Of a stretch of DNA of 35,651 nucleotides, positions 11,548 through 35,312 are shown in pieces. The notes beneath the pieces were generated by a model. The model had not been told where the DNA came from, made no database searches, and saw only the letters and a list, made by a program, of their open reading frames with translations. Numbering within the stretch: position 1 is the stretch's first letter; each line of letters starts with the position of its first letter. Made by a program: the position numbers and the translations under genes. The stretch is from Candidatus Saccharimonadota bacterium. Its GTDB lineage: Bacteria; Patescibacteriota; Saccharimonadia; Saccharimonadales; Saccharimonadaceae. The DNA lies in NCBI GenBank assembly GCA_017511405.1, contig JAFWKB010000050.1, forward strand, positions 1 through 35,651. The letters are read 5' to 3'.

Positions 11548-14500
11548 TCAAGCAGAAGTTTTTTCAATCAATAACTTTATAAAATTTTTTACATCCTTCA
11601 TTGTTTTATTCTTGTCAGCCTCAACTCTAAGTTCATCATCGTCGAGAAATTCCAAACTAGTCGCTTGTTTATAGACAACAGAAATAAGTTGCTTTAGTGT
11701 TTTCTCATCAGTCCGCTCAAATTCCTCAAAATCCAACACCTTATCATAAACTTTTCCTTCCTCATCTGGATTAACGAAAAGAATGTGACCTTTCGTAACT
11801 TTATAAAGTTTATATGTCGGGGAATTATTAAGCATCAACTTATAAAACCCAAGTTGAAGACTATATTTATATAAAGAATTAACACTCCCCCACTTTTCCT
11901 TATGATACTTCCCGGTCTTAAAATCATAAATCTCAATCGTTTTCTTCTCTTTTTCGATCGCTACATGGTCAAGAACTCCCGTCACCGGAACACCGTCAAT
12001 CGTTATATGTTCGCCTTTTAAATCCAACTCTGCGCGCGAATTTTGAGCGCGGAGCAAATCTCCGAAACTCTCAAGCGATGTTCTCAAGGCAAGCTCTCCA
12101 ATTTCTAGCAATTCTTTAAGTTCCCTCCCTGTTAAATCCGAGCATTCCGCCTCTTTTCTTAATCCCTCAACCGCCTCTTCATCAGAAATACCATCTGCTG
12201 TAATCTTCTGAAAAGCATGGTGAACCAAGTTTCCAAGTATAATGTTTGAAGTTGCCGGAGGCTGAGGTGTTCTAAGTACCTTTTTCTCGAAAAACGCCAT
12301 CGGCCCGCCATAAGAAATATCAACAAAACTTGCTAAATCTGTCGAAGTTAACTTATAATTTTCCATCCGCCTCAAAAGAATCGGACGAAGCTCAGGAGTG
12401 TTTCTTACATAAGCACTCCGCCAAGTCTTCCTCAGGTCAACCGTCTTACGAAGCTCTTTCAAATCATTATAATGCAAAGAAACTTTATAAAGTTTTTCTG
12501 AGTTTTTAGGGTTTATTATAAGTGGAGAAATCACATTTCCGTCATCGTCAACGTATTCCTCGAGATAGCTCAACCTAGCCGGACTCTTGCCAGAAAAATC
12601 TTTCGTCGAATTGGTCATTACTAATGCTTTCTTGGCTCGAGTTATCGCCACAAACAAAAGCCGCAGTTTTTCATCGTCAGTTGTCCCCGTATGTCGAATT
12701 TGCACCATATTTTTCGGCAAAGAAAGTAAATTATTATTACCTTTTCCTCTACCCCAGTTTACATTATCAGTCGCAATCAGAAAAACATACTCATATTCAA
12801 GCCCCTTCGATTTATGCGCTGTCACAAGCTGAACCGCATCTTCAGAATCGCGATACGGCGAAGTGTTCACGAGTCCCATCCCCGCCTCTTCATAATCTTC
12901 AAGGAGTAGCACCAGATCTTTTAATCTCAACGTCTTTTCCTTAGAATAGCTCAAAATCGCTTCTCTCAAAACGGCCAAGTTTTCATAAAGTTCAAACGTC
13001 TCAAAACTATCCTGTTCTTTAGCATAAAATTCCAAAAATGGCGAACGAAACGCTCTAGTTTCGACCGAAATCTCCAACTCAACTGAACCAACCATATAAT
13101 CAAGCATTAGCTCAAGCGGCGTATCAAAAGACAACATCGTCAGCTTCGCCAAAAACTCAGCCAACTCTCTAATCTTAGGCGAAGAGGATTTCAAAAGATA
13201 ATCAAGTCCAGATTTCTTATCTTCTTTTGCCTGATAAACCGCAGATATTGCCTCCGCACTCGGAATTTGCCAAAACGGAAAACTCATAATCTCGAGCAAA
13301 CGAGAGGAGATATTTTTACCAAGCGATAAATCATAGATAAACCTACTTAATGTCAGAATTTCCGACAAACGAGGGTCCTCAAAAATATTATCTCTCTTCT
13401 CGTAAGCAATATTTAAATTCTCCTTCTCCTTCAAAAACGGCAACAAAGGAGCTATGTACTTATGTTTCGGCGCAATAATTGCAATTTCTTTTTGAGGAAC
13501 ACCCTGTTTAATAAGTTTAGAAATCTCATCCGCCACAAACTGATATTCTTGATCAGAAGTCAAAAACTCGTGTCGAGAGATAATTCCGCCTGGGCCTTTA
13601 AAGGCAGTCAATTTCTTCGAAAGACCCATCTCTTTTGCACCCTCATTTTTTACGAAACTATTAGAAATCTGATCCGCAATCTTACGGGAAAAATCGAGTA
13701 TTTCTTGATTTGAGCGATAGTTTTCTTCCAGATTTACAACTTTCGCCCCATAATATTGCTCAAAATTCAACAAATTCGACGCATCTGCCCCCTGAAACTC
13801 AAAAATTGCCTGGTCATCATCTCCAACCGCCATCACATTTGGTTTTTCGTAATCAGTTAAAAGCCGGATAATCTCTGCTTGGCTCGGATTAGTATCTTGG
13901 AATTCATCAAGAAGAATATACTGATACCTTTCCTGGCAAGTCAACCTAAACGCCTCGTCTTTCTTCAGAAAAGAAATCGCCTGTTCAATCATATCATCAA
14001 AATCATAAAGTCCATCTTTTTCAAGCAACTCGGAATATTTAATCATTATCTTCCCCAAAGATTTCAACTTCTTGTTCGCAACTCTATCTTTAAGACAATA
14101 ACCACCATCATCCTTGCGTTCGAAGCATGCTTTTTTCCAATCGGAGAAGGGTTTCACCGAAACTTTTTTCCCGTTCGCATCCAAATCTTCCGCCTCACGG
14201 ATTAACCTCGCCAAATCTCGCGCAAGCACATTAGAAACAGGCTCAATATCTCTTACAATTTTTTCTTTCGAAACATATTTGACCAGAATCTCAAGAATAG
14301 GCCTATAAACATCATCAACAACCTCCGGATAGCGAGCACCTTTTTTAGCACCTTCCAAAATCGGAGAAATCTCAGAATTTAGCTCATCACTCAAAGCCTC
14401 ATTTTTCTCTGCAACTTTAATCAAATCTTCACCAGACAATCTCGCCTGCTTAGCGCTTGAAATCGTATCTAAAATATCTCTTAAAGCCGAATGTTTCAAA

Positions 14501-14889
14501 ATATCTTGTACTGGCAATTCTTCCTGTATCGTCTTTACGATTTTATACTTAGTTACCTCGTCAATCGCCGAATCCAAATTCCGATCAAACTTATCTGCAA
14601 AGTTTTTATATTGCGACAATAAATCAACTCCAAAAGCATGATATGTATGAATTTGGAGCTTCCTCGCCTCTTTTCCAATCGTAGAGAGCAATCGTTCGCG
14701 CATATTTGAAGCACCACTTTCCGTAAAAGTAATGCAAAGAATATTTTCCGGACTTACATCAGTCGCCTTAAGTATGTGCTCAACCCTAGCCGACAAAAGA
14801 TGCGTTTTTCCAGTACCAGGCCCCGCCAAAACTAGAAGCGGTCCATCTATATAATTGACCGCTTCTGCTTGTTTTTTATTTAACCCCAT
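11548..14889 (-). CDS. UvrD/PcrA-type SF1 helicase fused to C-terminal PD-(D/E)XK (RecB/AddA-like) nuclease
   Basis: VLAGPGTGKT, ILLDEFQDTN, VGDDDQAIF, ENYRS, TAHKSKGLE, LLFVAITRAK; C-terminal GVLDHV...IYDFKTG...QLGFY. Confidence 0.92.
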   Translation of the reverse strand: MGLNKKQAEAVNYIDGPLLVLAGPGTGKTHLLSARVEHILKATDVSPENILCITFTESGASNMRERLLSTIGKEARKLQIHTYHAFGVDLLSQYKNFADKFDRNLDSAIDEVTKYKIVKTIQEELPVQDILKHSALRDILDTISSAKQARLSGEDLIKVAEKNEALSDELNSEISPILEGAKKGARYPEVVDDVYRPILEILVKYVSKEKIVRDIEPVSNVLARDLARLIREAEDLDANGKKVSVKPFSDWKKACFERKDDGGYCLKDRVANKKLKSLGKIMIKYSELLEKDGLYDFDDMIEQAISFLKKDEAFRLTCQERYQYILLDEFQDTNPSQAEIIRLLTDYEKPNVMAVGDDDQAIFEFQGADASNLLNFEQYYGAKVVNLEENYRSNQEILDFSRKIADQISNSFVKNEGAKEMGLSKKLTAFKGPGGIISRHEFLTSDQEYQFVADEISKLIKQGVPQKEIAIIAPKHKYIAPLLPFLKEKENLNIAYEKRDNIFEDPRLSEILTLSRFIYDLSLGKNISSRLLEIMSFPFWQIPSAEAISAVYQAKEDKKSGLDYLLKSSSPKIRELAEFLAKLTMLSFDTPLELMLDYMVGSVELEISVETRAFRSPFLEFYAKEQDSFETFELYENLAVLREAILSYSKEKTLRLKDLVLLLEDYEEAGMGLVNTSPYRDSEDAVQLVTAHKSKGLEYEYVFLIATDNVNWGRGKGNNNLLSLPKNMVQIRHTGTTDDEKLRLLFVAITRAKKALVMTNSTKDFSGKSPARLSYLEEYVDDDGNVISPLIINPKNSEKLYKVSLHYNDLKELRKTVDLRKTWRSAYVRNTPELRPILLRRMENYKLTSTDLASFVDISYGGPMAFFEKKVLRTPQPPATSNIILGNLVHHAFQKITADGISDEEAVEGLRKEAECSDLTGRELKELLEIGELALRTSLESFGDLLRAQNSRAELDLKGEHITIDGVPVTGVLDHVAIEKEKKTIEIYDFKTGKYHKEKWGSVNSLYKYSLQLGFYKLMLNNSPTYKLYKVTKGHILFVNPDEEGKVYDKVLDFEEFERTDEKTLKQLISVVYKQATSLEFLDDDELRVEADKNKTMKDVKNFIKLLIEKTSA
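12039..12068 (-). repeat. Dispersed 30-bp motif copy (GTTTCGGAGATTTGCTCCGCGCTCAAAATT) inside helicase gene
   Basis: Reverse complement matches the copy at 34731-34760 at 26/30 positions. Confidence 0.85.
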
Positions 14890-15766
14890 TTTTTATCCTC
14901 CTCAGAATATCTGGTAAAATTTCTAACTCTCGCGGAATAAAAATTCCTTGTCGTTCAATCTCTCTCGCCGCCGTAACCCCCTCAACGGTCACCCCACGCG
15001 GAGCCAACATCTTCTTTAGTCTAACATCTTTGCTCGCTCTGAAAAACCCATCCAAACTTTTTCTCAAACCAGTTCGCCCTTCAAACTCGGACAATCTTAC
15101 TCCGAAACGATAATTCCGACTCATGTCACTCCCACATGTTAAAACAAAATCCCCCACGCCCGCAGAAAACTTCACAGTTTCAAGAAATCCGCCGTTATAA
15201 ATCAGAATCTGCTGAGACTCTTTTACGGCTTCCAAAATAAACTCTTTAAACATAGAAGAACGTTGAGTAAGTCTCCGTCGACCAGACTCAATCGCAAAAA
15301 TATTCTTTAACGCTCCAAGAAGCATCACTCCATAAACATCATCCGTCTTATCAAATCGCAATTTTTCCGATTCTAAAAGACGTTCCGCAAGCGTTACACC
15401 ATCTAAAGCACCAATCGAAGCGACCGTAAGCTTTATGCGTTTCTCATTTACGATGTCGCTCGCAAATCCCGGTCCAGAAATAATTTCATAATTCTCAAAT
15501 TTGTCATAAAGCTCTTTATTAAGTACCCCTTTCGTCGCCACAAGAAGCGGCTTAAAGAATCCTTCCGCAGGCAGGGAATTGATAATTCCAGAAACAGCCT
15601 TAGACGGCGCAGCGAGAAGAATTACATCAGAGAACTCCACAACATCCCGAAGGGTACGATTCGGAAGCAAAAAAGGGTCATAAAAATAAGTCGCATTCCC
15701 ATTTCTTCGAAGCTGAACTCCGAAAGCTTTTCCGTATTCGCCAGCCCCCAAAATACCTATCTTCAC
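14876..15766 (-). CDS. gpsA: NAD(P)H-dependent glycerol-3-phosphate dehydrogenase (shortened)
   Basis: IGILGAGEYG, ATKG, ISGPGFA, GALKNIFAI, GVGDFVLTC..SRNYRFG, TVEGV. Confidence 0.88.
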   Translation of the reverse strand: MKIGILGAGEYGKAFGVQLRRNGNATYFYDPFLLPNRTLRDVVEFSDVILLAAPSKAVSGIINSLPAEGFFKPLLVATKGVLNKELYDKFENYEIISGPGFASDIVNEKRIKLTVASIGALDGVTLAERLLESEKLRFDKTDDVYGVMLLGALKNIFAIESGRRRLTQRSSMFKEFILEAVKESQQILIYNGGFLETVKFSAGVGDFVLTCGSDMSRNYRFGVRLSEFEGRTGLRKSLDGFFRASKDVRLKKMLAPRGVTVEGVTAAREIERQGIFIPRELEILPDILRRIKNGVK

Positions 15767-15790
15767 TTTCTCTCCTTCTTAACTATAATC

Positions 15791-15841
15791 AGTATAGCAC
15801 AAAACCTCCCCCCTGCGCAATGGCTAAAGATATGTTATAAT
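15791..15841. promoter_or_regulatory. Divergent extended -10 promoters for gpsA (TGCTATACT, minus, 15791-15799) and dus (TGTTATAAT, plus, 15833-15841)
   Basis: Both motifs read directly; dus ATG lies 6 nt after TATAAT. Confidence 0.6.
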
Positions 15842-15847
15842 AAAGAA

Positions 15848-16807
15848 ATGAATATCTGGGATAACCTCAAAAAGCCAATTCTTGCACTCGCCCCAATGGA
15901 GGGAGTGACCGACATAGTTTTTCGACAAGTTATCTCAAAAGCTTCGCGTCCTGATCTATTCTTTACGGAATTCACCAACGTTTCCTCTTTCGCTTCAGAG
16001 AAAGGCCGCCACGACGCCCTCTCTCGTCTCAAAATTTCCCCCTCCGACTCCCCGATAATCGCCCAAATTTGGGGCAAGAATCCCGAACATTTTTCGGAAC
16101 TTTCATCCGCGCTCAAAAATCTCGGTTTTTCCGGTATTGACCTCAATTTTGGTTGCCCCGATCGTCATGTTAACCGTGCCGGAGGAGGAGCAGCCATGAT
16201 TAAAACTCCTGACCTCGCCGTCGAATGTGTACGTCGCGCCAAAAACTCGTCAAACGGCCTTCCCATCTCCGTAAAAACTCGTCTCGGTTTCACCTATCTC
16301 GAAGAATACAAAACTTGGCTTCCGACTATCTTGAGCGAACATCCTTCCGCCCTTACAGTTCATCTCCGAACACGAAAAGAAATGTCTAAAGTCCCCGCCC
16401 ATTTCGAGCTTATCCCCGAAATAATTAAACTAAGGAACGAATTTTCTCCCGAAACCAAACTTCTCATCAACGGAGACATCAAAAATCGCGCCGAAGCTCT
16501 AAAACTCTACCAAAAACATCCCGAAATTGACGGATTTATGATTGGGCGCGGCGTCTTTGAAAACCCTTTCTGTTTCAAGAGAACAGAAGACAATCTTCCT
16601 TACGCCCCAACAAAAGAAGAACTCTTCGCCTTATTAAACTATCATCTTGATGTCTTCGACCAAAACTCACCCCAACCTTACGAGCCCCTTAAACATTTCT
16701 TTAAGGTTTATGTCAAAGATTTTCCCGGCGCCTCCGAGCTTCGAACTAAAATGATGGAATGCAAAAATACAAATGAGCTTCGAGAAATCATCAACTCTTA
16801 CTCGTGA
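15848..16807 (+). CDS. dus: tRNA-dihydrouridine synthase (Dus family)
   Basis: LAPMEGVTD, TEF, AQIWG, IDLNFGCP, SVKTRLG, TVHLRT, INGDI, MIGRG. Confidence 0.94.
   Translation: MNIWDNLKKPILALAPMEGVTDIVFRQVISKASRPDLFFTEFTNVSSFASEKGRHDALSRLKISPSDSPIIAQIWGKNPEHFSELSSALKNLGFSGIDLNFGCPDRHVNRAGGGAAMIKTPDLAVECVRRAKNSSNGLPISVKTRLGFTYLEEYKTWLPTILSEHPSALTVHLRTRKEMSKVPAHFELIPEIIKLRNEFSPETKLLINGDIKNRAEALKLYQKHPEIDGFMIGRGVFENPFCFKRTEDNLPYAPTKEELFALLNYHLDVFDQNSPQPYEPLKHFFKVYVKDFPGASELRTKMMECKNTNELREIINSYS
16091..16120 (+). repeat. Dispersed 30-bp motif copy (TTTTCGGAACTTTCATCCGCGCTCAAAAAT) inside dus
   Basis: 28/30 identical to the copy at 35281-35310. Confidence 0.9.
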
Positions 16808-17229
16808 TGATAACTTCCGCCTCGAGAAATCTCCTGTGCTCGATAAATCTGCTCGGTCACAATTAACCTCGATAACATATGCGGAAAAACAAGTCGAGAA
16901 AAACTCCAAACAAAATCAGCCCGTTCTCTAACCTCCTCCGACACTCCAAATGCCGCCCCAATAATTATCACAATTTCCTTACTCTCATTAAACTTTTTCT
17001 CTAAAAGTTCGGATAATTCCGGCGAAGAGAGCTCCATACCCCTCTCATCACACAAAATTACAAACTCGTTCCCAGTAAACGGCCATTTCGCAAGAAAATC
17101 ATCCAATTTTTCTCCCTCCAAAAACTTAAACTCCACATCAAACGGCTTTCTTAACCTCTTCACATAATCATGAATTAACCAACCATATTCTCCCCCTTGT
17201 TTCTTGCCCCCGGCCACAATCTTTATCAT
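16798..17229 (-). CDS. rlmH: 23S rRNA (pseudouridine1915-N3)-methyltransferase
   Basis: DERG..LSS..LS, IIGAAFGV, SFSRLVFPHML.RLI..EQIYRA...GGSYHHE; start reset to MIKIVAGG (17229). Confidence 0.94.
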   Translation of the reverse strand: MIKIVAGGKKQGGEYGWLIHDYVKRLRKPFDVEFKFLEGEKLDDFLAKWPFTGNEFVILCDERGMELSSPELSELLEKKFNESKEIVIIIGAAFGVSEEVRERADFVWSFSRLVFPHMLSRLIVTEQIYRAQEISRGGSYHHE

Positions 17230-17230
17230 C

Positions 17231-17259
17231 TTTACATTTTTCCTTTCTTTTGATATAAT
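17231..17259 (+). promoter_or_regulatory. Promoter of rplJ-rplL
   Basis: TTTACA-N17-TATAAT with TG extension, back-to-back with the rlmH start. Confidence 0.7.
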
Positions 17260-17270
17260 TATAGCAGTTA

Positions 17271-17335
17271 CCAAAGACAGCGACGGGATTTTCTCAAAAA
17301 ATCCTTAATTTGTATTTGACATCGTCGCCGAGGAA
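17271..17335 (+). ncRNA. L10 leader (rplJ autoregulatory cis element)
   Basis: AAGACA-GCGACG...TTAA...CGTCGC-CGAGG with inner GGATTTT/AAAATCC hairpin, directly upstream of rplJ; matches the L10-leader layout (AGACAG-stem-UUAA-stem-CGAGG). Confidence 0.75.
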
Positions 17336-17404
17336 ATTTTCTCTTAATAAAGGTTGGTAACGATTTTTAACAGTTCGCTAACAACCAAAAAAGGAAAAAA
17401 CTAA

Positions 17405-17932
17405 ATGGCTATCTCGAAAGATAAAAAAACCACTTTAGTTGCTGATTTAACTGAACTTTTATCAAGCGCAAAGACAACTGTCTATGCCCGCTACCAAGGT
17501 CTAACCGTCGCTGAGCTCCAAGAGCTCCGCGCCGCCGCTCGTGAAGCAGGCGTAAAAATCAAAGTTGTCAAAAACCGCCTTGTCCGTGTCGCCATGAACG
17601 AAATCGCCGTTTATAAAGACACCGACACTACTGGATTAACCGGACAGCTCCTCTATGCTATCTCTAGCGAAGATGAGGTAATGCCTGCAAAAGTGCTTGC
17701 TAACTTCGCCAAAGACCACGAAGCCCTTGAACTTGCCGGCGGCTTTAGCGATCTCGGCAACACGCTTTCCGAAGATGACGTCAAAGCCCTCGCAGCAATG
17801 CCATCCAAGAACGAGATGATTGCGCAAGTTGTTGCAACCTTGCTCTCGCCTGTCAACGATGTCATTTCTGCTACATCTGGCTCTCTCTCCGGAATCGTCT
17901 CTGGTCTTGAAGCGCACGCTGAAGGAAAATAA
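17405..17932 (+). CDS. rplJ: 50S ribosomal protein L10
   Basis: YQGLTVAELQELR, KVVKNRL, LAAMPSK. Confidence 0.96.
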   Translation: MAISKDKKTTLVADLTELLSSAKTTVYARYQGLTVAELQELRAAAREAGVKIKVVKNRLVRVAMNEIAVYKDTDTTGLTGQLLYAISSEDEVMPAKVLANFAKDHEALELAGGFSDLGNTLSEDDVKALAAMPSKNEMIAQVVATLLSPVNDVISATSGSLSGIVSGLEAHAEGK

Positions 17933-17969
17933 ATTAGCAACTATTAATACTAAATAAAAGGATAATACT

Positions 17970-25076: not shown

Positions 25077-26216
25077 ATGAACGCGCTTATTCTTATTTTA
25101 CTAATAATAAATCTCCTCCTCTCCCTTACAATAATCTATAAAATCTTTTTCGCACCAACCACCTCAGCTGATTCCGAATTAAAACGCAACCTCGCTAAAA
25201 CCGAAGGTAAAATCGAACTCCTTACTCAAAAAATCGATTCTCTTGCCCCAACTCTTTCCGACGAATTCCGAAAAAATCGCAAAGAATTAAATGAAAACTT
25301 TGAGAAAATTCAATCCTCAAATGAGAAAAAACTCGAACAAATGCGTGAAACTGTCGACGAAAAGCTTCAAGCTTCCGTCGAAAAACGCTTCAATAACAGC
25401 TTCAAAACTATTTCCGAACAACTAACCCAAGTTTACCAAGGTCTCGGCGAGATGAAAAACCTCGCCACAGGAGTCGGTAACCTTAAAAAGGTTATGGAGG
25501 GGGTCAAAACTCGCGGCGTTTATGGCGAGGTTCAACTCGGAGCAATTATCGAAGATACTTTAAATCCGACTCAATACCTAACTAACACCTTAATCAAAAA
25601 GGGAAGCAAAGACCGTGTAGAATTCGCAATTAAGCTCCCCGGGAAAGGAAAATCCGAAATCCTTCTCCCAATCGACTCAAAATTCCCCATCGAGAATTAT
25701 CAACGTCTCCTCTCCGCCTACGAAGCGGGAGATAAACAAGAAATAGAAAAATATCGCAAAGAACTACGCAAAAACGTCCTTGACCAAGCCAAGAAAATTC
25801 AAGAAAAATATATTGAAGTTCCTAAAACCGCAAACTTCGCCATGATGTTTATCCCAACCGAAAGCCTCTATGCCGAAATCTTGCGCATTCCTGGCCTAGA
25901 CGAAGAGGTTCGCAAAAAATATAACATCTCCATATCTAGCCCCTCTACTCTCCCCGTCATGCTCGGCGGCCTTCTTATGGGCTACCGCAGCGTCGCTATA
26001 GAAAAACGCTCCGCCGAGGTCTGGAAAATTCTCGAAGGAGTTCGGGCCAACTTTGGCAAATTCAGCGATCTTCTCGAAGCCGTCGAGAAAAAACTTGGCG
26101 AAAGTGCAGACAAAATTGGCTCCGCCAAAAAACAAGCCGTTAAAATCCAAACCCAGATGGAAAACATCGCCCTTCCCGATTCCTCGTCGGAAATGCCGCC
26201 CGCGCTCAAAATTTAA
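25077..26216 (+). CDS. rmuC: DNA recombination protein RmuC
   Basis: N-terminal TM, LEQMRETVDEKLQ, KTRGVYGEVQL, LPIDSKFP, FAMMFIPTESLYAE; start reset to MNALIL. Confidence 0.93.
   Translation: MNALILILLIINLLLSLTIIYKIFFAPTTSADSELKRNLAKTEGKIELLTQKIDSLAPTLSDEFRKNRKELNENFEKIQSSNEKKLEQMRETVDEKLQASVEKRFNNSFKTISEQLTQVYQGLGEMKNLATGVGNLKKVMEGVKTRGVYGEVQLGAIIEDTLNPTQYLTNTLIKKGSKDRVEFAIKLPGKGKSEILLPIDSKFPIENYQRLLSAYEAGDKQEIEKYRKELRKNVLDQAKKIQEKYIEVPKTANFAMMFIPTESLYAEILRIPGLDEEVRKKYNISISSPSTLPVMLGGLLMGYRSVAIEKRSAEVWKILEGVRANFGKFSDLLEAVEKKLGESADKIGSAKKQAVKIQTQMENIALPDSSSEMPPALKI
26184..26213 (+). repeat. Dispersed 30-bp motif copy (TCGTCGGAAATGCCGCCCGCGCTCAAAATT) at the 3' end of rmuC
   Basis: TCGGAA and CCCGCGCTCAAAATT at the same spacing as the other copies. 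Confidence 0.75.
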
Positions 26217-26239
26217 CGTTTTCATGTTATAATTAAGGT

Positions 26240-27253
26240 ATGTATAAGTCATTCGTTGATTTTTTGAAAGATAAACACAAAATCTGCATCATCCAAGCCG
26301 AAAACCCTGACGGAGACTCTCTCGGCTCCGCCATCGCCCTTGATTATTTAATTTCCTTAAACGCTAACAATTCCCCAGAAATCTCCCTCTACTGCCCAGT
26401 CGACATCCCCAAATATCTTCACTATTTCTCAGATTGGTCACGTGTAGAAAACGAATTTGATTGGCGCGCCGACGGTTATATCATTGTCGATACCGCCGCC
26501 GAAGTTTTGCTTTCCAAATTACTCGAAGATTCCGCCATCCAAAACAAGCTCAATACAACCCCGACTTTTGTCCTCGACCATCACGAAACTGAAGACAATT
26601 TACCTTTTCCTCACGAAAAAATCATCGAGCCATTACCCGCCTGCTGCGACCTAATTTACAAAATTATCGTCTCAGAAAACTTAAAACTCGACAGAGATAT
26701 TGCCAAAAACCTTATCTATGGCATATTATCAGATACGCTCGGCCTCACCTCTTCATCCTCCACTCCCGATACTTTTCGAGATATCGCCAACCTCCTCGAA
26801 AAAGGAAATCTCGATATCGCCACTCTCGAAGAAGCTCGTCGCGAATTTTCCAAAAAATCCCCTAGAATCCTCGATTATAAAGCCGATTTAATCAAAAAAA
26901 TCGATTATTCTCTCGACGGCATCCTTGCAACAGTTCATATCACTTGGGAAGAAATCCGCGAATTCTCCGACGAGTACAATCCAAACGTTCTCATCCTCGA
27001 AGAACTCCGCCTTACGGAGGGCGTAGAAGTTGCCGTAGCTGTAAAAACCTATCCTGACGGAAAAGTTACCGGAAAAATCCGCACCTCTAAGCCAATTGCC
27101 GACCAAATTGCCGGCTATTACGGCGGCGGCGGCCATCCTTTCGCAGCCGGATTTAGAACTTATGATATCTCTTACGAAGATATCATCCGCGACTTAGTAA
27201 AAATCACCCCTGAACTATTAAATTCTCTCGAAACAGAGGAAAACCATGCTTAA
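26240..27253 (+). CDS. DHH-family phosphoesterase (NrnA-like nanoRNase/pAp phosphatase)
   Basis: NPDGDSLGS, IVDT, LDHH, LSDT, GGGGHPFAAG. Confidence 0.9.
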   Translation: MYKSFVDFLKDKHKICIIQAENPDGDSLGSAIALDYLISLNANNSPEISLYCPVDIPKYLHYFSDWSRVENEFDWRADGYIIVDTAAEVLLSKLLEDSAIQNKLNTTPTFVLDHHETEDNLPFPHEKIIEPLPACCDLIYKIIVSENLKLDRDIAKNLIYGILSDTLGLTSSSSTPDTFRDIANLLEKGNLDIATLEEARREFSKKSPRILDYKADLIKKIDYSLDGILATVHITWEEIREFSDEYNPNVLILEELRLTEGVEVAVAVKTYPDGKVTGKIRTSKPIADQIAGYYGGGGHPFAAGFRTYDISYEDIIRDLVKITPELLNSLETEENHA

Positions 27254-28625
27254 ACTCTATAACACCGCAACCAAAAAACTCGAAAGTTTTAAGCCTAAAA
27301 ACTCAGAAAAAGTCACGATTTACACCTGTGGCCCAACCGTCTATTCCGCCCCTCATATTGGCAATTTCGCCGCCTATATTTATTGGGACCTTCTTCTTCA
27401 GATTCTCAAGCTTAACGATTTAACCCCCTACCGCGTACTCAACCTAACCGATGTCGGCCATCTTACCTCCGACGGAGATAAGGGAGAAGATAAACTCGAA
27501 AAAGGCGCTCGCATCGAGGGAAAAACCGTCTGGGAAATCGCCGACCATTATATCTCACTTTTTAAATCCGATTTTCGAAAGCTCCGTCTTAACGAGCCTC
27601 AAAAATGGGCCCGTGCTACCGATTATATTGAAGAATCCAAAGAGCTCGTCCAAAAGCTCATAGATAACGATTTTGTCTATGAGACCTCAGACGGCTTATA
27701 CTTCGATACATCTAAATTCCCGGCCTACCCCGATTTCGCTCATCTAAATCTCGAAAATCAAAAAGCCGGTGCTCGCGTTAGTTTTTCTTCGGAAAAAAGA
27801 AATATTTCCGACTTTGCCGTCTGGAAATTCATCGCTCCTGAAGAAAAACATATTATGCGCTGGAATTTCCTTGGTCGTCCTGGCTACCCCGGCTGGCATC
27901 TCGAATGTTCAACCATCATCCATCAAGAACTCGGCGAGCCAATCGACATCCACACCGGCGGCATCGACCATATTCCTATCCACCATACCAACGAAATCGC
28001 CCAAACCTTTGGCGCTTTCCAAAAAAAACTTGCCGAGTTCTGGCTTCATTGTAACTTTCTTACCATTAATGGTGAGAAAATTTCAAAATCCCTCGGCAAT
28101 ATCATCACTCTAAAAGACCTTGAAGAAAAAGGTTTCTCTGTTTTTGATTTCAAACTCTGGCTTTATCAAGGACATTATCGCAGCGAAAGAAATTTCACCT
28201 GGGAAGATTTAGCCTCCGCAAAAATCCGTCGCAAAAATTGGCAAAATGCCTACATCCTCTCTTGCCAAAGAGGCAAAACTAGTCAAACCCCTTCCTTAGA
28301 ATCTAAGCTGCTTGAATATCTCAACGACGATCTAAACTCGCCCGCCGCCTTCGCATATATAGATTCTATCAAAGAAACCTTAACCTCCGAAGATTGGGAA
28401 TTAATCGACGAAATCTTTAAACTGAATTTAACCGAAATAAAAAACAATTCAAACTGGTCTTTTTCTGATTATGAATCTTTTGCTCGTCCTCTAATCAATA
28501 AACGCAACTTCGCCCGCGCTCAAAAGAATTACCAAACCGCCGATCAACTCCGAGAAGAATTATCTAAAAAGGGACTAACCCTCCTCGATACAAGCGAAGG
28601 AACTTTCTGGCAGCTCGAACCCTAG
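27246..28625 (+). CDS. cysS: Cysteine--tRNA ligase
   Basis: YTCGPTVY, HIGN, PGWHLECS, DIHTGGIDH..HH.NE, KISKSLGN. Confidence 0.97.
   Translation: MLKLYNTATKKLESFKPKNSEKVTIYTCGPTVYSAPHIGNFAAYIYWDLLLQILKLNDLTPYRVLNLTDVGHLTSDGDKGEDKLEKGARIEGKTVWEIADHYISLFKSDFRKLRLNEPQKWARATDYIEESKELVQKLIDNDFVYETSDGLYFDTSKFPAYPDFAHLNLENQKAGARVSFSSEKRNISDFAVWKFIAPEEKHIMRWNFLGRPGYPGWHLECSTIIHQELGEPIDIHTGGIDHIPIHHTNEIAQTFGAFQKKLAEFWLHCNFLTINGEKISKSLGNIITLKDLEEKGFSVFDFKLWLYQGHYRSERNFTWEDLASAKIRRKNWQNAYILSCQRGKTSQTPSLESKLLEYLNDDLNSPAAFAYIDSIKETLTSEDWELIDEIFKLNLTEIKNNSNWSFSDYESFARPLINKRNFARAQKNYQTADQLREELSKKGLTLLDTSEGTFWQLEP
28514..28525 (+). repeat. Core 12-mer CCGCGCTCAAAA of the dispersed motif, inside cysS
   Basis: Exact core; upstream CGCAACTT resembles CGGAACTT with 1-nt shorter spacing. 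Confidence 0.5.
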
Positions 28626-28696: not shown

Positions 28697-29314
28697 ATGT
28701 GTCGTTCATTTTTAACGTCTATACATGCCAGAATATACGCTGCAGCCATAAACCGGCGCTATCTTCGTCTAGAGCAAAACCCAGAATATAACCCATATTT
28801 ATATTATAGCCCAGACGCAAAAATATTCATTATAAGTAAATCATATCTATTTGAGCGTCTGGGGAAATACGCTGGCAAGCAATACAAATTGACCCGAAAA
28901 CACTTCTGGCTAAAATTACAGCACGATTTTATAGTCGCCAGTAAATGTGGTCTAATTAGTTGCTATACAATCCTAAAATTCCTTGAGGAATATTCTTGCG
29001 ACTTACCTAAAAAATACTCTATAGAATTTCAAGCTCAAATTCAACATTTTGCCAAGCTCTTCAATAATGCTATAAGAAAAACGACTAAATATTCATTCGC
29101 TAAATACGACGAGTGGCTTCAAGAAACCGCAAGCACGTTCGCATTAAATGAAAAGGCAATTATCGTCAACCTGCTCGGTTTACACGAAGGCATCATAAAT
29201 CAAAGACGACTTTCCGAAGAAATAGAACCGCTGCTCAAAGATAACGAAGAGTTAATTCGTTCGCTCGAAGAGTTTACCCGAATCATCTCTCAAATCATGA
29301 AAGAAAAAGAATAA
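28697..29314 (+). CDS. Hypothetical protein in a self-contained expression unit
   Basis: TTGCTT-N17-TATAAT (28627-28655), SD GAAAGGAGG, terminator 29338-29360; no recognised motif. Confidence 0.7.
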   Translation: MCRSFLTSIHARIYAAAINRRYLRLEQNPEYNPYLYYSPDAKIFIISKSYLFERLGKYAGKQYKLTRKHFWLKLQHDFIVASKCGLISCYTILKFLEEYSCDLPKKYSIEFQAQIQHFAKLFNNAIRKTTKYSFAKYDEWLQETASTFALNEKAIIVNLLGLHEGIINQRRLSEEIEPLLKDNEELIRSLEEFTRIISQIMKEKE

Positions 29315-29337
29315 TATTTCTCCCTTTTACTCAAATC

Positions 29338-29360
29338 ATGCCCCAAGAAGGGGCATTTTT
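29338..29360 (+). terminator. Rho-independent terminator
   Basis: ATGCCCC-AAGAA-GGGGCATTTTT. Confidence 0.8.
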
Positions 29361-29401
29361 ACTGGCAAAAAGCATAATTTTATGTTATATTAAAAAATAT
29401 A

Positions 29402-30628
29402 ATGAAAGAATCCGCAACATACAAATCACTCTCCTTTACCATTGATAAAACATTGAAAAGTGGTCTAGGAAGAATCGGATCAATCAAAACAGCTCACGAC
29501 GAAATTAAAACGCCCGCCTTCATGACCGTTGGAACAAAAGGCGAAGTTCGATTCGTCGATATGGATAGTCTTCATCAAATTGGAGCCGAAGCTATGCTTT
29601 CGAACGGCTATCACCTCAGAAAACTTGCGCCCGAAATCGCTAAACAAGGCGGACTTGCCAAGTACTCAGGTTGGAACGGTCCGACCTTAACCGATTCTGG
29701 CGGATTCCAAGTCATGTCGCTCGGTTCCGGACTCGGCAAAGTCGTCTCGATGGATAGAAAAATCAAACAAACCTCAGAAAAAAACCGTCTAGCCCACGTT
29801 TCCGACGAAGGAGTCGACTTCACCGACCCCTTCACGGGAGAGCAAGAATTCATCGGTCCCGAAGAATCAATGCAGATTCAAACCAACATCGGCGCCGACA
29901 TCCACATGGCTTTCGATGAGCTAACATCTCTCGCCGATAATTATGACTATAACGTTCAGGCCATGTTCCGCACAGAAATGTGGGCCGAACGCTCACTAAA
30001 AAAACACCAAGAAATCCGCGACTCACTCGGTTATCGTCAAAATCTCTATGGCGTTCTCCAGGGTGGACGCTGGGAAGACCTTCGTCGTCGCACTGCCAAA
30101 GTTCTCGGAACTATGGATTTTGACGGGTATGGTCTCGGCGGAGCTTTTTTAAAAGAACAACTCGGAGATATTTTGCGTTGGTGCAATGAAGAATTGCCTT
30201 TTGAAAAACCTAAGCATCTCCTCGGTCTCTCTCGACCCGACGACATCTTTATCGGTTTCGAAAACGGCGCCGACACCCTCGATTGTGTCGCCCCAACCCG
30301 CGAAGCCCGCCATGGCCGAATTTATACCCGTGACGGAGAAATCTACTTGAGAAAATTCAAAGATTGTCCCGAGCTCCTCGACGAAAATTGCGACTGTCCA
30401 ACCTGTCGTTCTGGTTGGACGAAAGGCCAACTACGCGCCCTCTGGAAATCACCAACTCTAGAAGAAAAAGCCCTCTACTATAAACTCTCCTCAATCCACA
30501 ATCTCCGTTTTACTATCCGCATCTTCGAAGAAATCCGCCAAAATGTCCTCAAAAATTCATACGAAGCCTACAAAACCGACTTTTTATCCCGATACTATAG
30601 TCAAAAAAAATCGTCTATGCTAAAATAG
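29402..30628 (+). CDS. tgt: tRNA-guanine(34) transglycosylase
   Basis: TPAFMTVGT, TDSGGFQVMSL, VLQGG, KPKHLLG, GADTLDCV.PTR..RHG, Zn site CDCPTC...HN. Confidence 0.95.
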   Translation: MKESATYKSLSFTIDKTLKSGLGRIGSIKTAHDEIKTPAFMTVGTKGEVRFVDMDSLHQIGAEAMLSNGYHLRKLAPEIAKQGGLAKYSGWNGPTLTDSGGFQVMSLGSGLGKVVSMDRKIKQTSEKNRLAHVSDEGVDFTDPFTGEQEFIGPEESMQIQTNIGADIHMAFDELTSLADNYDYNVQAMFRTEMWAERSLKKHQEIRDSLGYRQNLYGVLQGGRWEDLRRRTAKVLGTMDFDGYGLGGAFLKEQLGDILRWCNEELPFEKPKHLLGLSRPDDIFIGFENGADTLDCVAPTREARHGRIYTRDGEIYLRKFKDCPELLDENCDCPTCRSGWTKGQLRALWKSPTLEEKALYYKLSSIHNLRFTIRIFEEIRQNVLKNSYEAYKTDFLSRYYSQKKSSMLK

Positions 30629-30649
30629 AACCAATCAAAGGAGATTTTT

Positions 30650-31774
30650 ATGGCGCACCAAATAATCGAAGTAGAAACAAAAACCTTCATCCGTTTTTGG
30701 CTCGTAACACTCGGATTTATTCTTGCTGGTGTTTTTATCGTAAAAGCTGGTGTCGCCCTTATGATGACCGGAATTGCCGCCCTCCTCGCCATCGCGATTC
30801 GTCCTTTCGCTCTCAAAGTCGAAAAACTCTTCTCTAAAATCTGGAAAACCAAGTCCAAAATCCCGACTCTTCTCGCCTATCTCATTGTTCTCCTTATTAT
30901 CGCCGCCATAGTCGCCATCGTTGGTCCCGTAATCATCAAAGAAATCGTTCGATTCGTCTCTAATCTTCCCAATATGGTTGAAGGTTCGGAGCTCAATTTC
31001 CTAAGCGATATCGGAGCTGCCCTCGGTTTCAAAGACCTCTCTACGGAAATCTCCGCCGCCGTAGAAAATTTCTCTAAAAATTTCCTAAGCGCTTATGGTT
31101 CATCCGTTCTTTCCGGAATCGGCTCAATCAGCACAATTGTCACGGAAACCGTAGTCACCTTAATCATGTCTCTCTTCTTCCTTCTCGAAGGACCCGGACT
31201 CCTAAATGACATTTGGAACAAACTTGGCGCTCGCCGCTCAACCTCCGAAGCTAAAGATCGTGACGCTAAACTTATTACCGAAGCTCGCTATATAGTCTCT
31301 AAAATGGCTTGGGTTGTTTCTACCTTTGTCGATAAAAAGGTCCTCGTCGCCATTATCAACGGTTGTGCTTCCGCCATCTTTATCTTCGTCATTTCAACCG
31401 CTCTCCATTTAGAAAACAACCTCGCTCTCCCTATGGGCATGATTGCTATGGTCTGTTGTATTATTCCAATGTTCGGTCAATTCATCGGCGGCATCACTAT
31501 CACTCTTCTCCTTCTCCTCAACAACCCCCTCGCTGCCGTCTTCTGGGTTGTTTACTACTCCATCTATAGCGTCATCGAATCCAACGTCTTCGAACCCAAA
31601 ATCCAAGGCGACGCCCTCAATCTCCCTCCCCTTATCGTCCTCATCGCCATCACTATCGGCACCTACATGATGGGCTTTTTCGGCACCATCATAGCAATCC
31701 CGATTGCCGGCTGCGTCAAGGTTATTCTTGACGAGCTCCCCAAAATCCGAGAAATTCAAAATCTCCCCAAATAA
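30650..31774 (+). CDS. AI-2E (PerM/TqsA) family transporter
   Basis: Multiple TMs, FFLLEG, IPMFG, ESNVFEPKIQG..LNLPP, G..G.IIAIP. Confidence 0.88.
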   Translation: MAHQIIEVETKTFIRFWLVTLGFILAGVFIVKAGVALMMTGIAALLAIAIRPFALKVEKLFSKIWKTKSKIPTLLAYLIVLLIIAAIVAIVGPVIIKEIVRFVSNLPNMVEGSELNFLSDIGAALGFKDLSTEISAAVENFSKNFLSAYGSSVLSGIGSISTIVTETVVTLIMSLFFLLEGPGLLNDIWNKLGARRSTSEAKDRDAKLITEARYIVSKMAWVVSTFVDKKVLVAIINGCASAIFIFVISTALHLENNLALPMGMIAMVCCIIPMFGQFIGGITITLLLLLNNPLAAVFWVVYYSIYSVIESNVFEPKIQGDALNLPPLIVLIAITIGTYMMGFFGTIIAIPIAGCVKVILDELPKIREIQNLPK

Positions 31775-31898
31775 TCAATTCTACCTCCAAATTCCGTCCC
31801 CTTCTACCCCTGTTAAACTTGACTTTTTTAAGCAGAAGGTGTATAATAGAAAGATATATCGTTTTATAGTTCTTTCCCAAAAAGGAGGTAGCTTCAAA

Positions 31899-32378
31899 AT
31901 GAAACACGAAAGTTATGTCGTTTTATTTCCCGAACTCAAAGATGAGCTCGATTTAAACGAACTCGACAATCTCGAAGGAAGCTTTGACTCAACCTTAAAA
32001 CTCGATTACTCAATAATTGCAAAATGCAACCGAGATCTTAATCTTAATTTTTCTCAAGATTGGTTCGAGAGAATCAAAAAAGCCAAAGAACTTCGTAATT
32101 CCGCTTCGGATCTTCTCCATGTCATCCTCGAAACCGAGCATAGCAAAAAAATCGCCAAAAAGCACTATTTATCCCAATTCGCCCGCAACATCATTAGCGA
32201 CCAAAGAAACATCCTAGACGTTGCCAACAATCAGATAGAGAAGCTCCACGATGATTTAATCGACCATCTCCATGACCTTAGCAGCAAGTATCCAACCGAA
32301 GAGATAATCGGTTCGCTAATCAAAAATCCCGCCCCTCCTTTCAAATTCACCCCTCCCGAGGTGAAAGTTACTTTCTAA
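31899..32378 (+). CDS. Hypothetical protein in a self-contained expression unit
   Basis: TTGACT-N17-TATAAT (31819-31847), SD AAAGGAGG, start reset to MKHESY, terminator 32381-32401. Confidence 0.7.
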   Translation: MKHESYVVLFPELKDELDLNELDNLEGSFDSTLKLDYSIIAKCNRDLNLNFSQDWFERIKKAKELRNSASDLLHVILETEHSKKIAKKHYLSQFARNIISDQRNILDVANNQIEKLHDDLIDHLHDLSSKYPTEEIIGSLIKNPAPPFKFTPPEVKVTF

Positions 32379-32380
32379 TC

Positions 32381-32401
32381 TGCCCCTTCTGGGGCATTTT
32401 T
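32381..32401 (+). terminator. Rho-independent terminator between convergent genes
   Basis: TGCCCC-TTCT-GGGGCATTTTT. Confidence 0.8.
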
Positions 32402-32411
32402 AATTAAAAAT

Positions 32412-32750
32412 CTAAACTGATTGAATCTTCTCAAACCTAATTGCAACAGAATTCTCTTCATCAAAAGGCTTTCCCATCTTATCGAACGCCTCTTTTGCCT
32501 TCTTTTCATCAGTTTCCTCGAACGCTTCCGCCATAAACCGACAAGTCCCGAAATCGTTCATCGCAAACACCTCGATTTTCGGATTTGCGACAATCTGAGA
32601 AAAAACACGCTTAACTCTCGAAGTTCCGCAATAAATTTTCCCCTCAATTTCCGCCGCCTGGTCAAAAGGACGAACATGTGGTTGATCATCCTCGGCCGTT
32701 GCTAAATACCACACTCCCCCAAGCGCCTCCAAAATTTCACTATTTTCCAT
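32412..32750 (-). CDS. Pyridoxamine 5'-phosphate oxidase-like FMN-binding split-barrel protein
   Basis: WYLATAEDDQPHVRPF, K.VFSQI..NPKIEV; SD GGGAGG. Confidence 0.85.
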   Translation of the reverse strand: MENSEILEALGGVWYLATAEDDQPHVRPFDQAAEIEGKIYCGTSRVKRVFSQIVANPKIEVFAMNDFGTCRFMAEAFEETDEKKAKEAFDKMGKPFDEENSVAIRFEKIQSV

Positions 32751-32763
32751 AACACCTCCCTTA

Positions 32764-32818
32764 AAACCTTAAAAACTCTCATATTTTTAAGGTTTGTTTT
32801 AAACATTTCTGCTATCAT
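32764..32818. promoter_or_regulatory. Operator-like inverted repeat and extended -10 upstream of the response regulator
   Basis: AAACCTTAAAAA-N8-TTTTTAAGGTTT (perfect 12-bp IR); TGCTATCAT at 32810-32818. Confidence 0.55.
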
Positions 32819-32844
32819 TCTAACATAAACAAGGAAAAATATTT

Positions 32845-33504
32845 ATGAGAATTTTATACGTTGAAGATGAAAAACTATTAGCCGACGCCGTCACCCATCT
32901 CCTCAAAAAACAGGGAATCGCTGTCGACTGGACCGATGACGGCGAAGAAGCCCTCAAACTCGCTAAAAAACCAGTTTACGACGCTATTGTCCTTGATATC
33001 ATGCTCCCAAAAATGTCCGGCCTAGAAATCCTAGAAATTATTAGGAAGCAGAGTATCAACACTCCCGTTATCATGCTCTCCGCCCTTTCGGAAATCGAAG
33101 ATAAAGTAAAAGGTCTCGAACTCGGAGCCGATGATTATCTTGCAAAGCCGTTTAAGACTAGTGAACTAATCGCTCGTTTGAACGCCCTTTCTCGCCGCCC
33201 TCCAATTCGCGAAAGAAAAATCCTCAAATTCGCCGATATTGAATTTGACCCCGAAGACCGCACAGTCAACGGCGTAACTTTGACAGAAAAAGAGTCAGAA
33301 ATCCTTAAAATGCTTATCGAAGCCGGCGACAAAACTGTTCAAAAAGATTATATCCTTGGCCACGTCTGGGGCGCTGAGATGCTCGCCGAAGACAATTACG
33401 TCGAAGTATACATGTCTTATCTCCGCAAAAAACTTAAAAGCGTAAGTTCTAAAGTTAGCATCAAAACAATCCGCGGCCTCGGTTACAAACTTGTCAAAAA
33501 ATAG
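32845..33504 (+). CDS. OmpR/PhoB-family response regulator
   Basis: VEDE, LDIMLP, LSA, GADDYLAKPF, winged helix VEVYMSYLRKK...TIRGLGY. Confidence 0.95.
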   Translation: MRILYVEDEKLLADAVTHLLKKQGIAVDWTDDGEEALKLAKKPVYDAIVLDIMLPKMSGLEILEIIRKQSINTPVIMLSALSEIEDKVKGLELGADDYLAKPFKTSELIARLNALSRRPPIRERKILKFADIEFDPEDRTVNGVTLTEKESEILKMLIEAGDKTVQKDYILGHVWGAEMLAEDNYVEVYMSYLRKKLKSVSSKVSIKTIRGLGYKLVKK

Positions 33505-33516
33505 TATAATTAGCTT

Positions 33517-34473
33517 ATGTTCAAGAATCTCCGCAACAAATTTGTCTTAATTAACGTCCTTACAACCTCTGCAATCCTCATTATCTCCTATGCGACCGTC
33601 TTTCTCGTTGCTAAAAACTCCGCCGAATCCCGAATGCCAATCCCCGCCGAAGAAACCTTAGACACCTTCGACCAGTCTCAAACCTACGTTCGCCGCATGA
33701 TTGAGGAACGCATCCTCACCGATCGTAAACTCGCCCTTAAAAACCTTCTTTTCGTCCTCATCGTTACTGGCATTTCCGTAGAAATCATCGTCTTTATTTT
33801 CTCGCTTTATCTCGCCGAAGAAGCCATCAAGCCTGTCAAAGAAGCCTATGACACCCAAAAAGTTTTTATAGCCAACGCTTCTCACGAAATCAAAACCCCC
33901 ATCGCCGCAATCAAAGCGAACCTCGAAGCTGCCGACCTCTCCTCGACCAATCACTGGATAAAAAATATAGAAACCGAAGCCGACAAGATAGAAACTCTTA
34001 ACCTCGCCCTCCTCAAACTCGCCAAAACCGATGCAATCAAAGAAGCCCTCGTGTCCGAACCAACAGAACTCAAACCTCTCGTCGAGTCGACGCTCGTCTC
34101 TTTCGATTCTCGGCTCAAAAAGAAAAACATTACTCTCAAAGTTTCTTATAACCTCGACGATAAAAAAATCATAAAACTCAATTCCGCCGACTATAAAGAA
34201 ATTTTAGAAATTTTAACCGACAACGCAATCAAATATTGCAATCAAAAAATCTGGATTCAAGTCACTCCCAAAACCCTTTCCATCAAAAACGATGGGGCAA
34301 CCATCCCCAAAGAAAAGCTTGCTCACATCTTCGACCGCTTCTATCAAGTCGATAAAAGCAAAAGCGGCTCTGGCCTCGGCCTCGCCATTGCCGATTCTCT
34401 CGCCAAGCGCAATAACTGGAGTCTAAAAGCCGACTCAACAAATAAAACCACAACTTTTACCCTAGGAGTTTAA
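33517..34473 (+). CDS. Sensor histidine kinase (2 TM, HisKA + HATPase_c)
   Basis: FIANASHEIKTP, DNAIKY, IFDRFYQ, GSGLGLAI. Confidence 0.93.
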   Translation: MFKNLRNKFVLINVLTTSAILIISYATVFLVAKNSAESRMPIPAEETLDTFDQSQTYVRRMIEERILTDRKLALKNLLFVLIVTGISVEIIVFIFSLYLAEEAIKPVKEAYDTQKVFIANASHEIKTPIAAIKANLEAADLSSTNHWIKNIETEADKIETLNLALLKLAKTDAIKEALVSEPTELKPLVESTLVSFDSRLKKKNITLKVSYNLDDKKIIKLNSADYKEILEILTDNAIKYCNQKIWIQVTPKTLSIKNDGATIPKEKLAHIFDRFYQVDKSKSGSGLGLAIADSLAKRNNWSLKADSTNKTTTFTLGV

Positions 34474-34695
34474 ATGATGATTAAAGTCTATACCACCCCG
34501 ACCTGTGTTTATTGTCACGCACTTATGGAATGGCTCGATGAGCTCGGGCAAGAATACGAAGAAATAAATGCCGAAAACCTTCCCGACATCAAATCTGTTC
34601 CTCTAACAATTTTCGTTGACAAAGCAGGGAACGAAACCAAGGTTCAAGGCTTCAATCGCCCTAAAATCAAAAAACTACTCAAGACCTTATCTTAA
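34474..34695 (+). CDS. Glutaredoxin/NrdH-like redoxin
   Basis: VYTTPTCVYC (CxxC), SVP, GFN. Confidence 0.88.
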   Translation: MMIKVYTTPTCVYCHALMEWLDELGQEYEEINAENLPDIKSVPLTIFVDKAGNETKVQGFNRPKIKKLLKTLS

Positions 34696-34700
34696 TTTTT

Positions 34701-34762
34701 AATCACCGCCCCTTGTTTCACCTCAATAAACTTTCGGAACTTTCCTCCGCGCTCAAAATTCC
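34701..34762 (+). repeat. Cassette leader copy A (contains the 30-bp motif at 34731-34760)
   Basis: Aligns with 35252-35312: AATC.CC.CC.CT...TTT.ACCTCAATAA..TTTCGGAACTTTC..CCGCGCTCAAAATTCC. Confidence 0.85.
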
Positions 34763-34779
34763 TCTTTCCGGCAACTTTC

Positions 34780-35000
34780 CTTCCAGAGCTCTCCGCAGCC
34801 TTCCTCTTTCGGTTATGATGTCGGGCTATCTCAGCTGGGACAGTGATAATCTCGGCAATAGAGGTACGCACGGCTACTTCTGGTCATCTACCCCCTATGC
34901 GTATACGTATTCGCACAACTTGAACTTCGCCTCCACTAGCGTTAACCCCATGTATGGCAGCAGTAAGCCAAACGGCTTACCCCTCCGCTGCGTTGTCCGT
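34780..35000 (+). repeat. Cassette 1: orphan DGR variable-region-like repeat (FISUMP/CLec C-terminus)
   Basis: SRALRSLPLSVMMSGYLSWDSDNLGNRGTHGYFWSSTPYAYTYSHNLNFASTSVNPMYGSSKPNGLPLRCV; collinear with cassettes 2 and 3. Confidence 0.85.
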
Positions 35001-35020
35001 CTCAAAAAGCGCTTCGTTTT

Positions 35021-35241
35021 CTTCCAGAGCTCTCCGCAGCCTTCCTCTTTCGGTTATGATGTCGGGCATTCTCAGCTGGAGCAGTGGTAATCTCTACAGT
35101 AGAGGTGCGGTCGGCTACTTCTGGTCATCTACGCCCTTCTCCTACTCAGATTCACGGTACTTGAATTTCGGCTCAACTAACATTAGCCCTAAGAATGGCA
35201 GCAATAAGCCCTACGGCTTAACCCTCCGCTGCGTCGCCCGT
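35021..35241 (+). repeat. Cassette 2: orphan DGR variable-region-like repeat
   Basis: SRALRSLPLSVMMSGILSWSSGNLYSRGAVGYFWSSTPFSYSDSRYLNFGSTNISPKNGSNKPYGLTLRCV. Confidence 0.85.
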
Positions 35242-35251
35242 TTTCCTCCAA

Positions 35252-35312
35252 AATCTCCACCTCTATTTTACCTCAATAACTTTTCGGAACTTTCACCCGC
35301 GCTCAAAATTCC
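35252..35312 (+). repeat. Cassette leader copy B (contains the 30-bp motif at 35281-35310)
   Basis: Homologous to 34701-34762, 550 bp apart. Confidence 0.85.

Follow-up and report, generated by a model that had tools for sequence, protein, structure and literature searches.

The window analysed here, a 35,651-bp stretch from a Candidatus Saccharimonadota bacterium (contig C44 of its own assembly, G000, which comprises 529 kb in 63 contigs and is 60% complete), carries five copies of a bipartite DNA motif, TCGGA-N9-CGCGCT. Each 20-base core is flanked on either side by ~60 bases with a 10.8-bp GC/AT phasing, giving an element of ~140 bp whose arms strongly imply DNA wrapped round a protein. 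The element is genuine. It exceeds, in length and in structure, what was noted in an earlier interpretation made from the letters alone (hereafter the sequence-only reading), and, as far as searched, it is undescribed: no description of the motif was found in the literature searched, most subscription journals being outside reach. We put at roughly 45% the probability that the sites are gyrase docking sites, positioned by a putative specificity factor.

The two boxes occur together at 12 sites in G000, with the longer consensus TTTCGGA-R-N-TTT-NNN-CGCGCT-CAAA. A matrix scan of the assembly separated these 12 sites from all other sequence by a clean score gap (36.8 to 14.2 bits), their leave-one-out scores were all at least 25.8 bits, and none of three Markov-5 control genomes contained a site of ≥18 bits, confirming genome-wide the enrichment that the sequence-only reading had proposed from the window. 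The six exact copies of CCGCGCTCAAAA reported there are present (shuffle mean 0.43, maximum 2), and its five 30-mers match their description. As it also claimed, the motif is read in different reading frames by its host genes, and coding sites exceeded a synonymous-codon null in four of four genomes (7, 17, 12 and 14 observed versus null means of 0.27–0.62, maximum 3, with 100 shuffles each). The copy in cysS at 28514, listed there as an exact 12-mer core, fared less well: the 12-mer is exact, but the TCGGA box is missing and the position lies outside the 16 windows scoring >10 bits. It is at best the remnant of a decayed site, its spacer being short by one base, or else a chance match.

A sequence logo built from 129 sites had patches rich in A/T at 11-base intervals beyond the core. 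After removal of 15 cassette-adjacent and dus-orthologue sites, the 10–12-bp power over the remaining 114 was 0.21 in the left arm and 0.11 in the right, whereas 300 random sets peaked at 0.015 and 0.025. An artefact of alpha-helical coding (3.6 amino acids, or 10.8 bp) is excluded, because the phase was equal (7.4–8.9) in all seven frame and strand classes, intergenic sites included (99 sites with full flanks), the amplitude was 0.10–0.13 at codon positions 1, 2 and 3 and at non-coding bases, above every null maximum, and controls carrying only one half-box (1852 and 215 sites) were flat (0.004 and 0.009). Twenty dialect sites outside the phase-learning set, 14 in G079 and 6 in G138, reproduced the phase; 0 and 2 of 2000 null sets, respectively, scored as high. 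The six cassette-free G000 sites, which belonged to the training set, were likewise phased (0/2000 null sets as high); the six cassette-linked ones had no phased arms (1651/2000). Taken genome by genome, G220, G225 and the pooled other loci lay above the null maximum, and within G000 the phased arms were strongest at the dus element. The arm periods were 11.05 and 10.5, the mirror axis of the arms fell at 9–9.5, midway between the boxes, and the amplitude envelope was centred near the left box. An accessory word, ACAGRGG, was found at 45 of 119 sites versus a 3% background; 45 of its 51 copies lay within 2 bp of an arm GC peak, in either orientation, and sites without it remained periodic (0.083). 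The arms have probably been selected for bending around a protein, and the proposal of a protein-bound chromosomal signal is thereby supported and extended to the whole ~140-bp element.

The motif is a genus-level signal with species-specific dialects (GCGGA, TCGGC). Hand-tallied counts of the minimal core TCGGA-N9-CGCGCY reached at least 5 copies in 72 of 301 genomes of the genus and at least 10 in 38 (maximum 45), with a few low counts taking in an unrelated identical repeat (G253, G011); a reversed control pattern reached 5 copies in one genus genome only, and 149 genomes from other genera of the order held at most 3. Restriction to a single species, to which the absence of an exact 25-base pattern from 40 of 40 relatives pointed, was overturned by looser patterns. 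In an all-species genome scan, 45 of the 80 loci listed (118 in total) came from Saccharibacteria, one of them a Nanosyncoccus and many from ruminant gut, and the other 35 listed records had one locus each; the records containing the window's own DNA were mostly gut metagenomes, and the genus is probably one of gut Saccharibacteria. An association with phages was rejected, with one match only in viral_contigs. Some apparent negatives carry dialects, namely TTGCGGA in 15 of 17 listed matches in G079 and TTTCGGC in 6 of 9 in G138. In G065 (291 of ~745 kb), a de novo dyad search brought up repeats resembling the cassettes but no dialect. Mapped on a quick GyrA tree that covers 49 proteins (49 of 52 loci yielded sequence), motif presence and absence take 9 changes, and well-supported branches make 5 of these unavoidable.

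Across G000, G220, G225 and G242, 52 of 58 sites are intragenic. The sequence-only reading held that the motif always lies on the sense strand of its host gene and is polar, and neither rule survives: the site at C26:3240 in G000 is antisense, the four genomes together have 27 sense, 25 antisense and 6 intergenic sites, and both orientations occur relative to the G-rich strand (14:7 in G220, 8:8 in G242, 3:9 in G225 and 1:7 in G000). On contig C4 of G225, the GC skew shifts in size at dnaA (about −0.27 to −0.08), not in sign. The same or adjacent host genes, with names partly inferred from N-termini, recur across species (AddA-like helicase, dus, exonuclease III, dnaE, aspS, gatA and iscS), the sites sometimes sitting at other codons or in the opposite orientation. 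Of 29 relatives compared at the orthologous codons of dus, 4 have the exact core, and sequences there tend to lie nearer to the core where the genome-wide site count is higher (Spearman −0.45, p = 0.014, over relatives that, as kin, are not independent). Density is one site per ~15–70 kb. Even spacing was not borne out by coefficients of variation of 0.67 in G220 (p = 0.08) and 0.99 in G225, both indistinguishable from random, and 1.35 in G242, where the sites are clustered and 10 of ~15 strong ones fall within 9% of the genome.

Table 1. Positions of the motif, the surrounding elements and the neighbouring cassettes in the window (arm values are genome percentiles).
Feature	Position	Strand	Remarks
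Bipartite core	12046..12065	-	In UvrD + PD-(D/E)XK helicase-nuclease gene, probably AddA-like; sense, frame +1
Whole element with phased arms	11985..12127	-	Left arm 67th, right arm 94th
Bipartite core	16094..16113	+	Inside dus
Whole element (dus)	16032..16174	+	Left arm 100th, right arm 99th
Bipartite core	26187..26206	+	3' end of rmuC
Whole element (rmuC)	26125..26267	+	Left arm 50th, right arm 89th
Right half only (cysS)	28514..28525	+	TCGGA box missing at fixed distance
Cassette-linked core	34734..34753	+	ACCTCAAT six bases upstream (34720-34727); member of six-copy subfamily without in-phase arms
Second cassette-linked core	35284..35303	+	ACCTCAAT at 35270-35277; between cassettes 2 and 3
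Cassette 1, orphan FISUMP C-terminal, variable-repeat-like	34776..35000	+	Neighbour, outside signal
Cassette 2	35017..35241	+	
Cassette 3	35328..35552	+	Weak Fib_succ_major match, E 4e-4

The three cassettes at the end of the window belong to a larger set in G000, with about 33 heads in about 19 loci, each ~220 bp long, mostly outside long open reading frames (ORFs), some in head-to-tail arrays and with a T-rich left junction. A comparison of 25 copies of equal length shows an A in 76 of the 90 columns that vary and conservation in 89 of the 103 columns that lack A, as expected for variable repeats (VR) of diversity-generating retroelements (DGR). Their template was not found in the G000 assembly. 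The cassettes could represent ectopic DGR products or else a silent library, and 24 similar matches were obtained in G065. Contig C35 of G000 (locus L011) has a reverse transcriptase, an upstream avd-like ORF and, on the opposite strand, two template-like repeats, which belong to a different family from the cassettes; the suggested co-location of the motif with a DGR template repeat was not seen there, since C35 carries no copy of the motif.

That the motif is a landing or recognition site for these cassettes, whether as a DGR target signal or as an integration site, is now highly improbable. Half of the 12 G000 sites do lie directly beside cassettes; these six have a longer left flank in common, in which ACCTCAAT stands six bases upstream of the core, in degenerate form in one copy, and strain contigs join the motif-bearing spacer to cassette tails in further arrays. 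Yet 28 of 33 cassette heads lack the motif, which lies just upstream of only five and so does not mark cassettes as had been claimed; cassettes are missing at the other six G000 sites and at almost every site in relatives, with a single site within 1 kb of a VR-like match (423 bp) in G220, G225, G242 and G065 together; the motif is absent from the template-repeat locus; and no empty-site joint was present among the joints listed for four sequencing runs, in which contigs break at repeats. Joining the cassette flanks to restore an empty motif site was tried and rejected, as it left only TTGC..TTTYCTT on the left and no conserved right side. On the simplest reading, the cassette-linked copies are a single duplicated subfamily in which the boxes have been retained and the arms lost. 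As a general function the landing site has thus failed, and a secondary role in cassette biology may remain. The RNA-level signal that had also been proposed is unsupported, because the sites occur on both strands, the five window sites folded no better than shuffles (z from −1.3 to +0.7, no significant hairpin) and an Rfam search gave no match to the motif sites; the listed sequencing runs containing window DNA included no RNA dataset.

Under the explanation we favour, the bipartite motif would supply the sequence-specific core to a docking site built into the chromosome, at which DNA wraps a protein, and that protein would most likely be gyrase, the cell's only type II topoisomerase, with the arms running around the GyrA C-terminal pinwheel. 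The two boxes might be read by a separate, fast-evolving factor or by the GyrB part of gyrase, and the sites, at about one per 15–70 kb, could give supercoil management its fixed points in cells in which searches turned up neither HU nor histone nor a second type II topoisomerase. The only candidate for wrapping that was found is gyrase. A GyrA-family gene, one per genome, was present in three of the five genomes searched and full GyrA in 29 of 32 motif-rich genomes, the GyrA-box was present in 49 of 49 aligned GyrA proteins, and neither HU/IHF nor histone was found in any of the five. The E. coli gyrase motif defined by Topo-Seq is 130 bp long and symmetric, with 10.75-bp arms (PMC6379681). 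Arm amplitudes here are 0.12 and 0.09, versus 0.09 and 0.09 in E. coli, and the averaged profile correlates with the E. coli GC profile at r = 0.59 when centred at 3.5, in the TCGGA box, which was the best centre in 397 of 500 bootstraps. A central phase break fits better (R2 = 0.63) than a continuous 10.75–11-bp wave (0.01–0.11). At 5 kb, 49 sites also show a weak lean towards convergent transcription (p = 0.028). In the published record, selection experiments (SELEX) with E. coli gyrase enrich periodic GC and GC-rich words in the arms bound by the C-terminal domain (10.1101/2025.10.21.683783), phage Mu's strong gyrase site (SGS) depends on a bent right arm (PMC10052514), and one preprint describes E. 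coli cleavage sites as not optimised for binding.

Other evidence weighs against gyrase. Centre 14.5, one turn on, fits the E. coli profile almost equally (r = 0.50), a continuous 11.5-bp wave reaches R2 = 0.48, and the phase break measures 0.54 turn (0.49–0.58) versus 0.36 in E. coli. The cleavage preference −4G/−2A/+6T/+8C, which six enzymes are reported to show (PMC12324340), agrees with centre 8.5 alone, and at that centre the arms run anti-phase to those of E. coli (r = −0.55); the arms' own mirror axis lies at 9–9.5; and weak periodicity reaches ~90 bp, compared with 65 for gyrase. Known gyrase recognition is degenerate and proceeds by indirect readout (PMC6379681, PMC13284261), with contacts mainly to the backbone (PMC13284261, PMC2094056), unlike the 11-base near-invariant core found here. 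Arms in G242 (16 sites) and at nine pooled G000 sites did not exceed the null maximum, and the lean to convergent transcription was absent at 2 kb (p = 0.19). Neither gyrA nor gyrB was found in G000, at 60% completeness, or in G225, which has 12 phased sites and is 99% complete in 4 contigs; the latter is perhaps an assembly gap, plausible because gyrA lies near contig ends in many members, or a real loss. GyrA explains neither the presence of the motif nor its dialect: sister pairs that agree in the residue at the E. coli D87 position nonetheless differ in the motif, and no private residue links the GyrA of G138 to that of the other TCGGC genomes. Covariation of GyrA with the motif was accordingly rejected, since the top columns (best p = 6.5e−6) follow clades and sister pairs break the link. 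The residue at the D87 position is Met in over half of the 49 genus members (L354–L406). No candidate specificity factor emerged among the proteins searched: those shared by G225 and G242 included no identifiable dedicated reader, the genes missing from 291 kb of G065 nothing DNA-binding, eleven small G225 proteins matched no Pfam family, and no PadR scored over the cut-off in five of five genomes.

Several of the same observations would suit a DNA-wrapping protein other than gyrase and so far undescribed, either a nucleoid organiser or an oligomer, which would itself read both boxes and ACAGRGG and wrap ~140–180 bp. An invariant core, dialects and patchy gain and loss (the GyrA tree forces 5 changes or more) suit a dedicated reader, as do a mirror axis midway between the boxes, a phase break that differs from that of gyrase and an accessory word at fixed positions in either orientation, and the failure to find HU or histone leaves room for a nucleoid role. 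We still regard such a protein as rather unlikely, given that the shared-protein, missing-gene and PadR searches named above yielded none and that period and length are near those of gyrase. A wider formulation takes in both and is tentatively plausible, if short of even odds: the sites may be 'wrap-here' addresses at which a dedicated, fast-evolving reader of a species-specific bipartite word nucleates a nucleosome-scale 140-bp wrap, alone or by loading gyrase, replacing HU and topoisomerase IV in minimal Patescibacteria.

Alternatively, the motif could be a self-recognition uptake signal built up by biased transformation, comparable to uptake signal sequences (USS) or DNA uptake sequences (DUS), with the arms helping DNA to bend on a pilus or channel. 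Sites inside core genes on both strands, species dialects and phased T/A tracts would fit, as would a CGCG/GCGG-rich box that recalls the USS inner core GCGG (PMC7811141). Natural competence has been shown in other members of the Saccharibacteria (PMC10633639), and ComEC was found in five of five genomes, but these include the motif-poor G065. Against about 0.6–1.1 USS per kb in H. influenzae, with 1,465 cores (PMC7811141), the density here (12 sites in 529 kb; at most 45 per genome) is far lower; the sites are few yet near-perfect, and they cluster in G242. Moreover, USS tracts are short AT tracts beside the core, no 60-bp two-sided arms being reported in the literature searched. We therefore judge an uptake function improbable, though together with a dedicated wrapper it makes up the main rivals to gyrase; if true, it would provide a self-recognition signal in a group for which none is described in the literature searched. 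More improbable still is a site of tyrosine-recombinase type with accessory arms, or a segregation or replication signal of the parS, matS or Ter type. The ~28–30-bp core, its partial CGGA-N7-TCCG symmetry in this clade, an Xer-like protein, ParAB and the clustering in G242 speak for it, but the inverted symmetry is lost in other members (GAGCGCGCT in G242), both orientations occur on contigs of one skew sign, sites do not cluster at dnaA or parB in G225 and G242, and spacing in G220 and G225 is like random. A search for canonical parS gave scattered 2-mismatch matches only.

Two further dispersed repeats were observed. A second genus-wide palindrome, TGTTGTAA-N3-TTACAACA, possibly a regulator operator, occurs in G000 (C17, C27, C36, C43 and C56), G220, G225, G242 and G065, with 5–8 copies where the whole or a large part of the genome is covered. 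A palindromic repeat, CCCGT-N4-ACGGG, is dispersed in G000 (C11, C24, C32 and C54), G225 and G242, several copies lying near cassette arrays. Positions 35553-35651 (-) of the window hold a reading frame with MAREKRAKQFAAFEAL, which we take to recall YolD-like N-termini.

These results bear on how the chromosome of ultra-small Patescibacteria is organised when neither HU nor a second type II topoisomerase is at hand, and a defined 140-bp element with natural dialects offers a direct handle on that organisation. If gyrase is indeed the wrapping protein, the sites would be strong gyrase sites that are natural, under selection, present in many copies and built on a fixed core; no description of such sites was found in the literature searched. 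Whether the function lies with gyrase or in uptake, selection at the DNA level alters residues of core proteins here.

Among known systems, parS/ParB, matS/MatP, Ter/Tus-RTP, KOPS and Chi resemble the element in that tens of protein-bound sites are tolerated inside genes; none shares its phased arms. parS is a 16-bp palindrome clustered near oriC and parB, unlike the present motif, which is non-palindromic and far from dnaA and parB; KOPS, Chi and Ter have a strand polarity relative to replication that is lacking here; and matS is a palindrome confined to the terminus region, whereas the motif is spread over G220 and G225 and clustered only in G242. With Pasteurellaceae USS and Neisseriaceae DUS it has in common a location in core genes on both strands, lineage dialects, a GC-rich core with AT tracts and competent hosts, but it is at least 10-fold sparser, its boxes are 9 bp apart and it bears 60-bp phased arms on both sides. 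Repetitive extragenic palindromic (REP) and bacterial interspersed mosaic (BIME-2) elements bind gyrase (PMC6379681) and are likewise dispersed chromosomal repeats, linked there to gyrase; unlike these intergenic hairpin repeats, the element is mostly intragenic and has no significant hairpin. Like the E. coli gyrase motif, the element has a central region between two ~47-bp arms whose GC content varies with a 10–11-bp period, and like the strong gyrase sites of phage Mu, pSC101 and pBR322 it spans ~130–140 bp, is orientation-independent and has a central phase break. Known gyrase sites are single or degenerate, in contrast to the bipartite core, dialects, arm word and 10–45 chromosomal copies seen here. 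Because cleavage register and arm phase disagree and the phase breaks are unequal, the resemblance to the E. coli gyrase motif is one of kind, not of identity.

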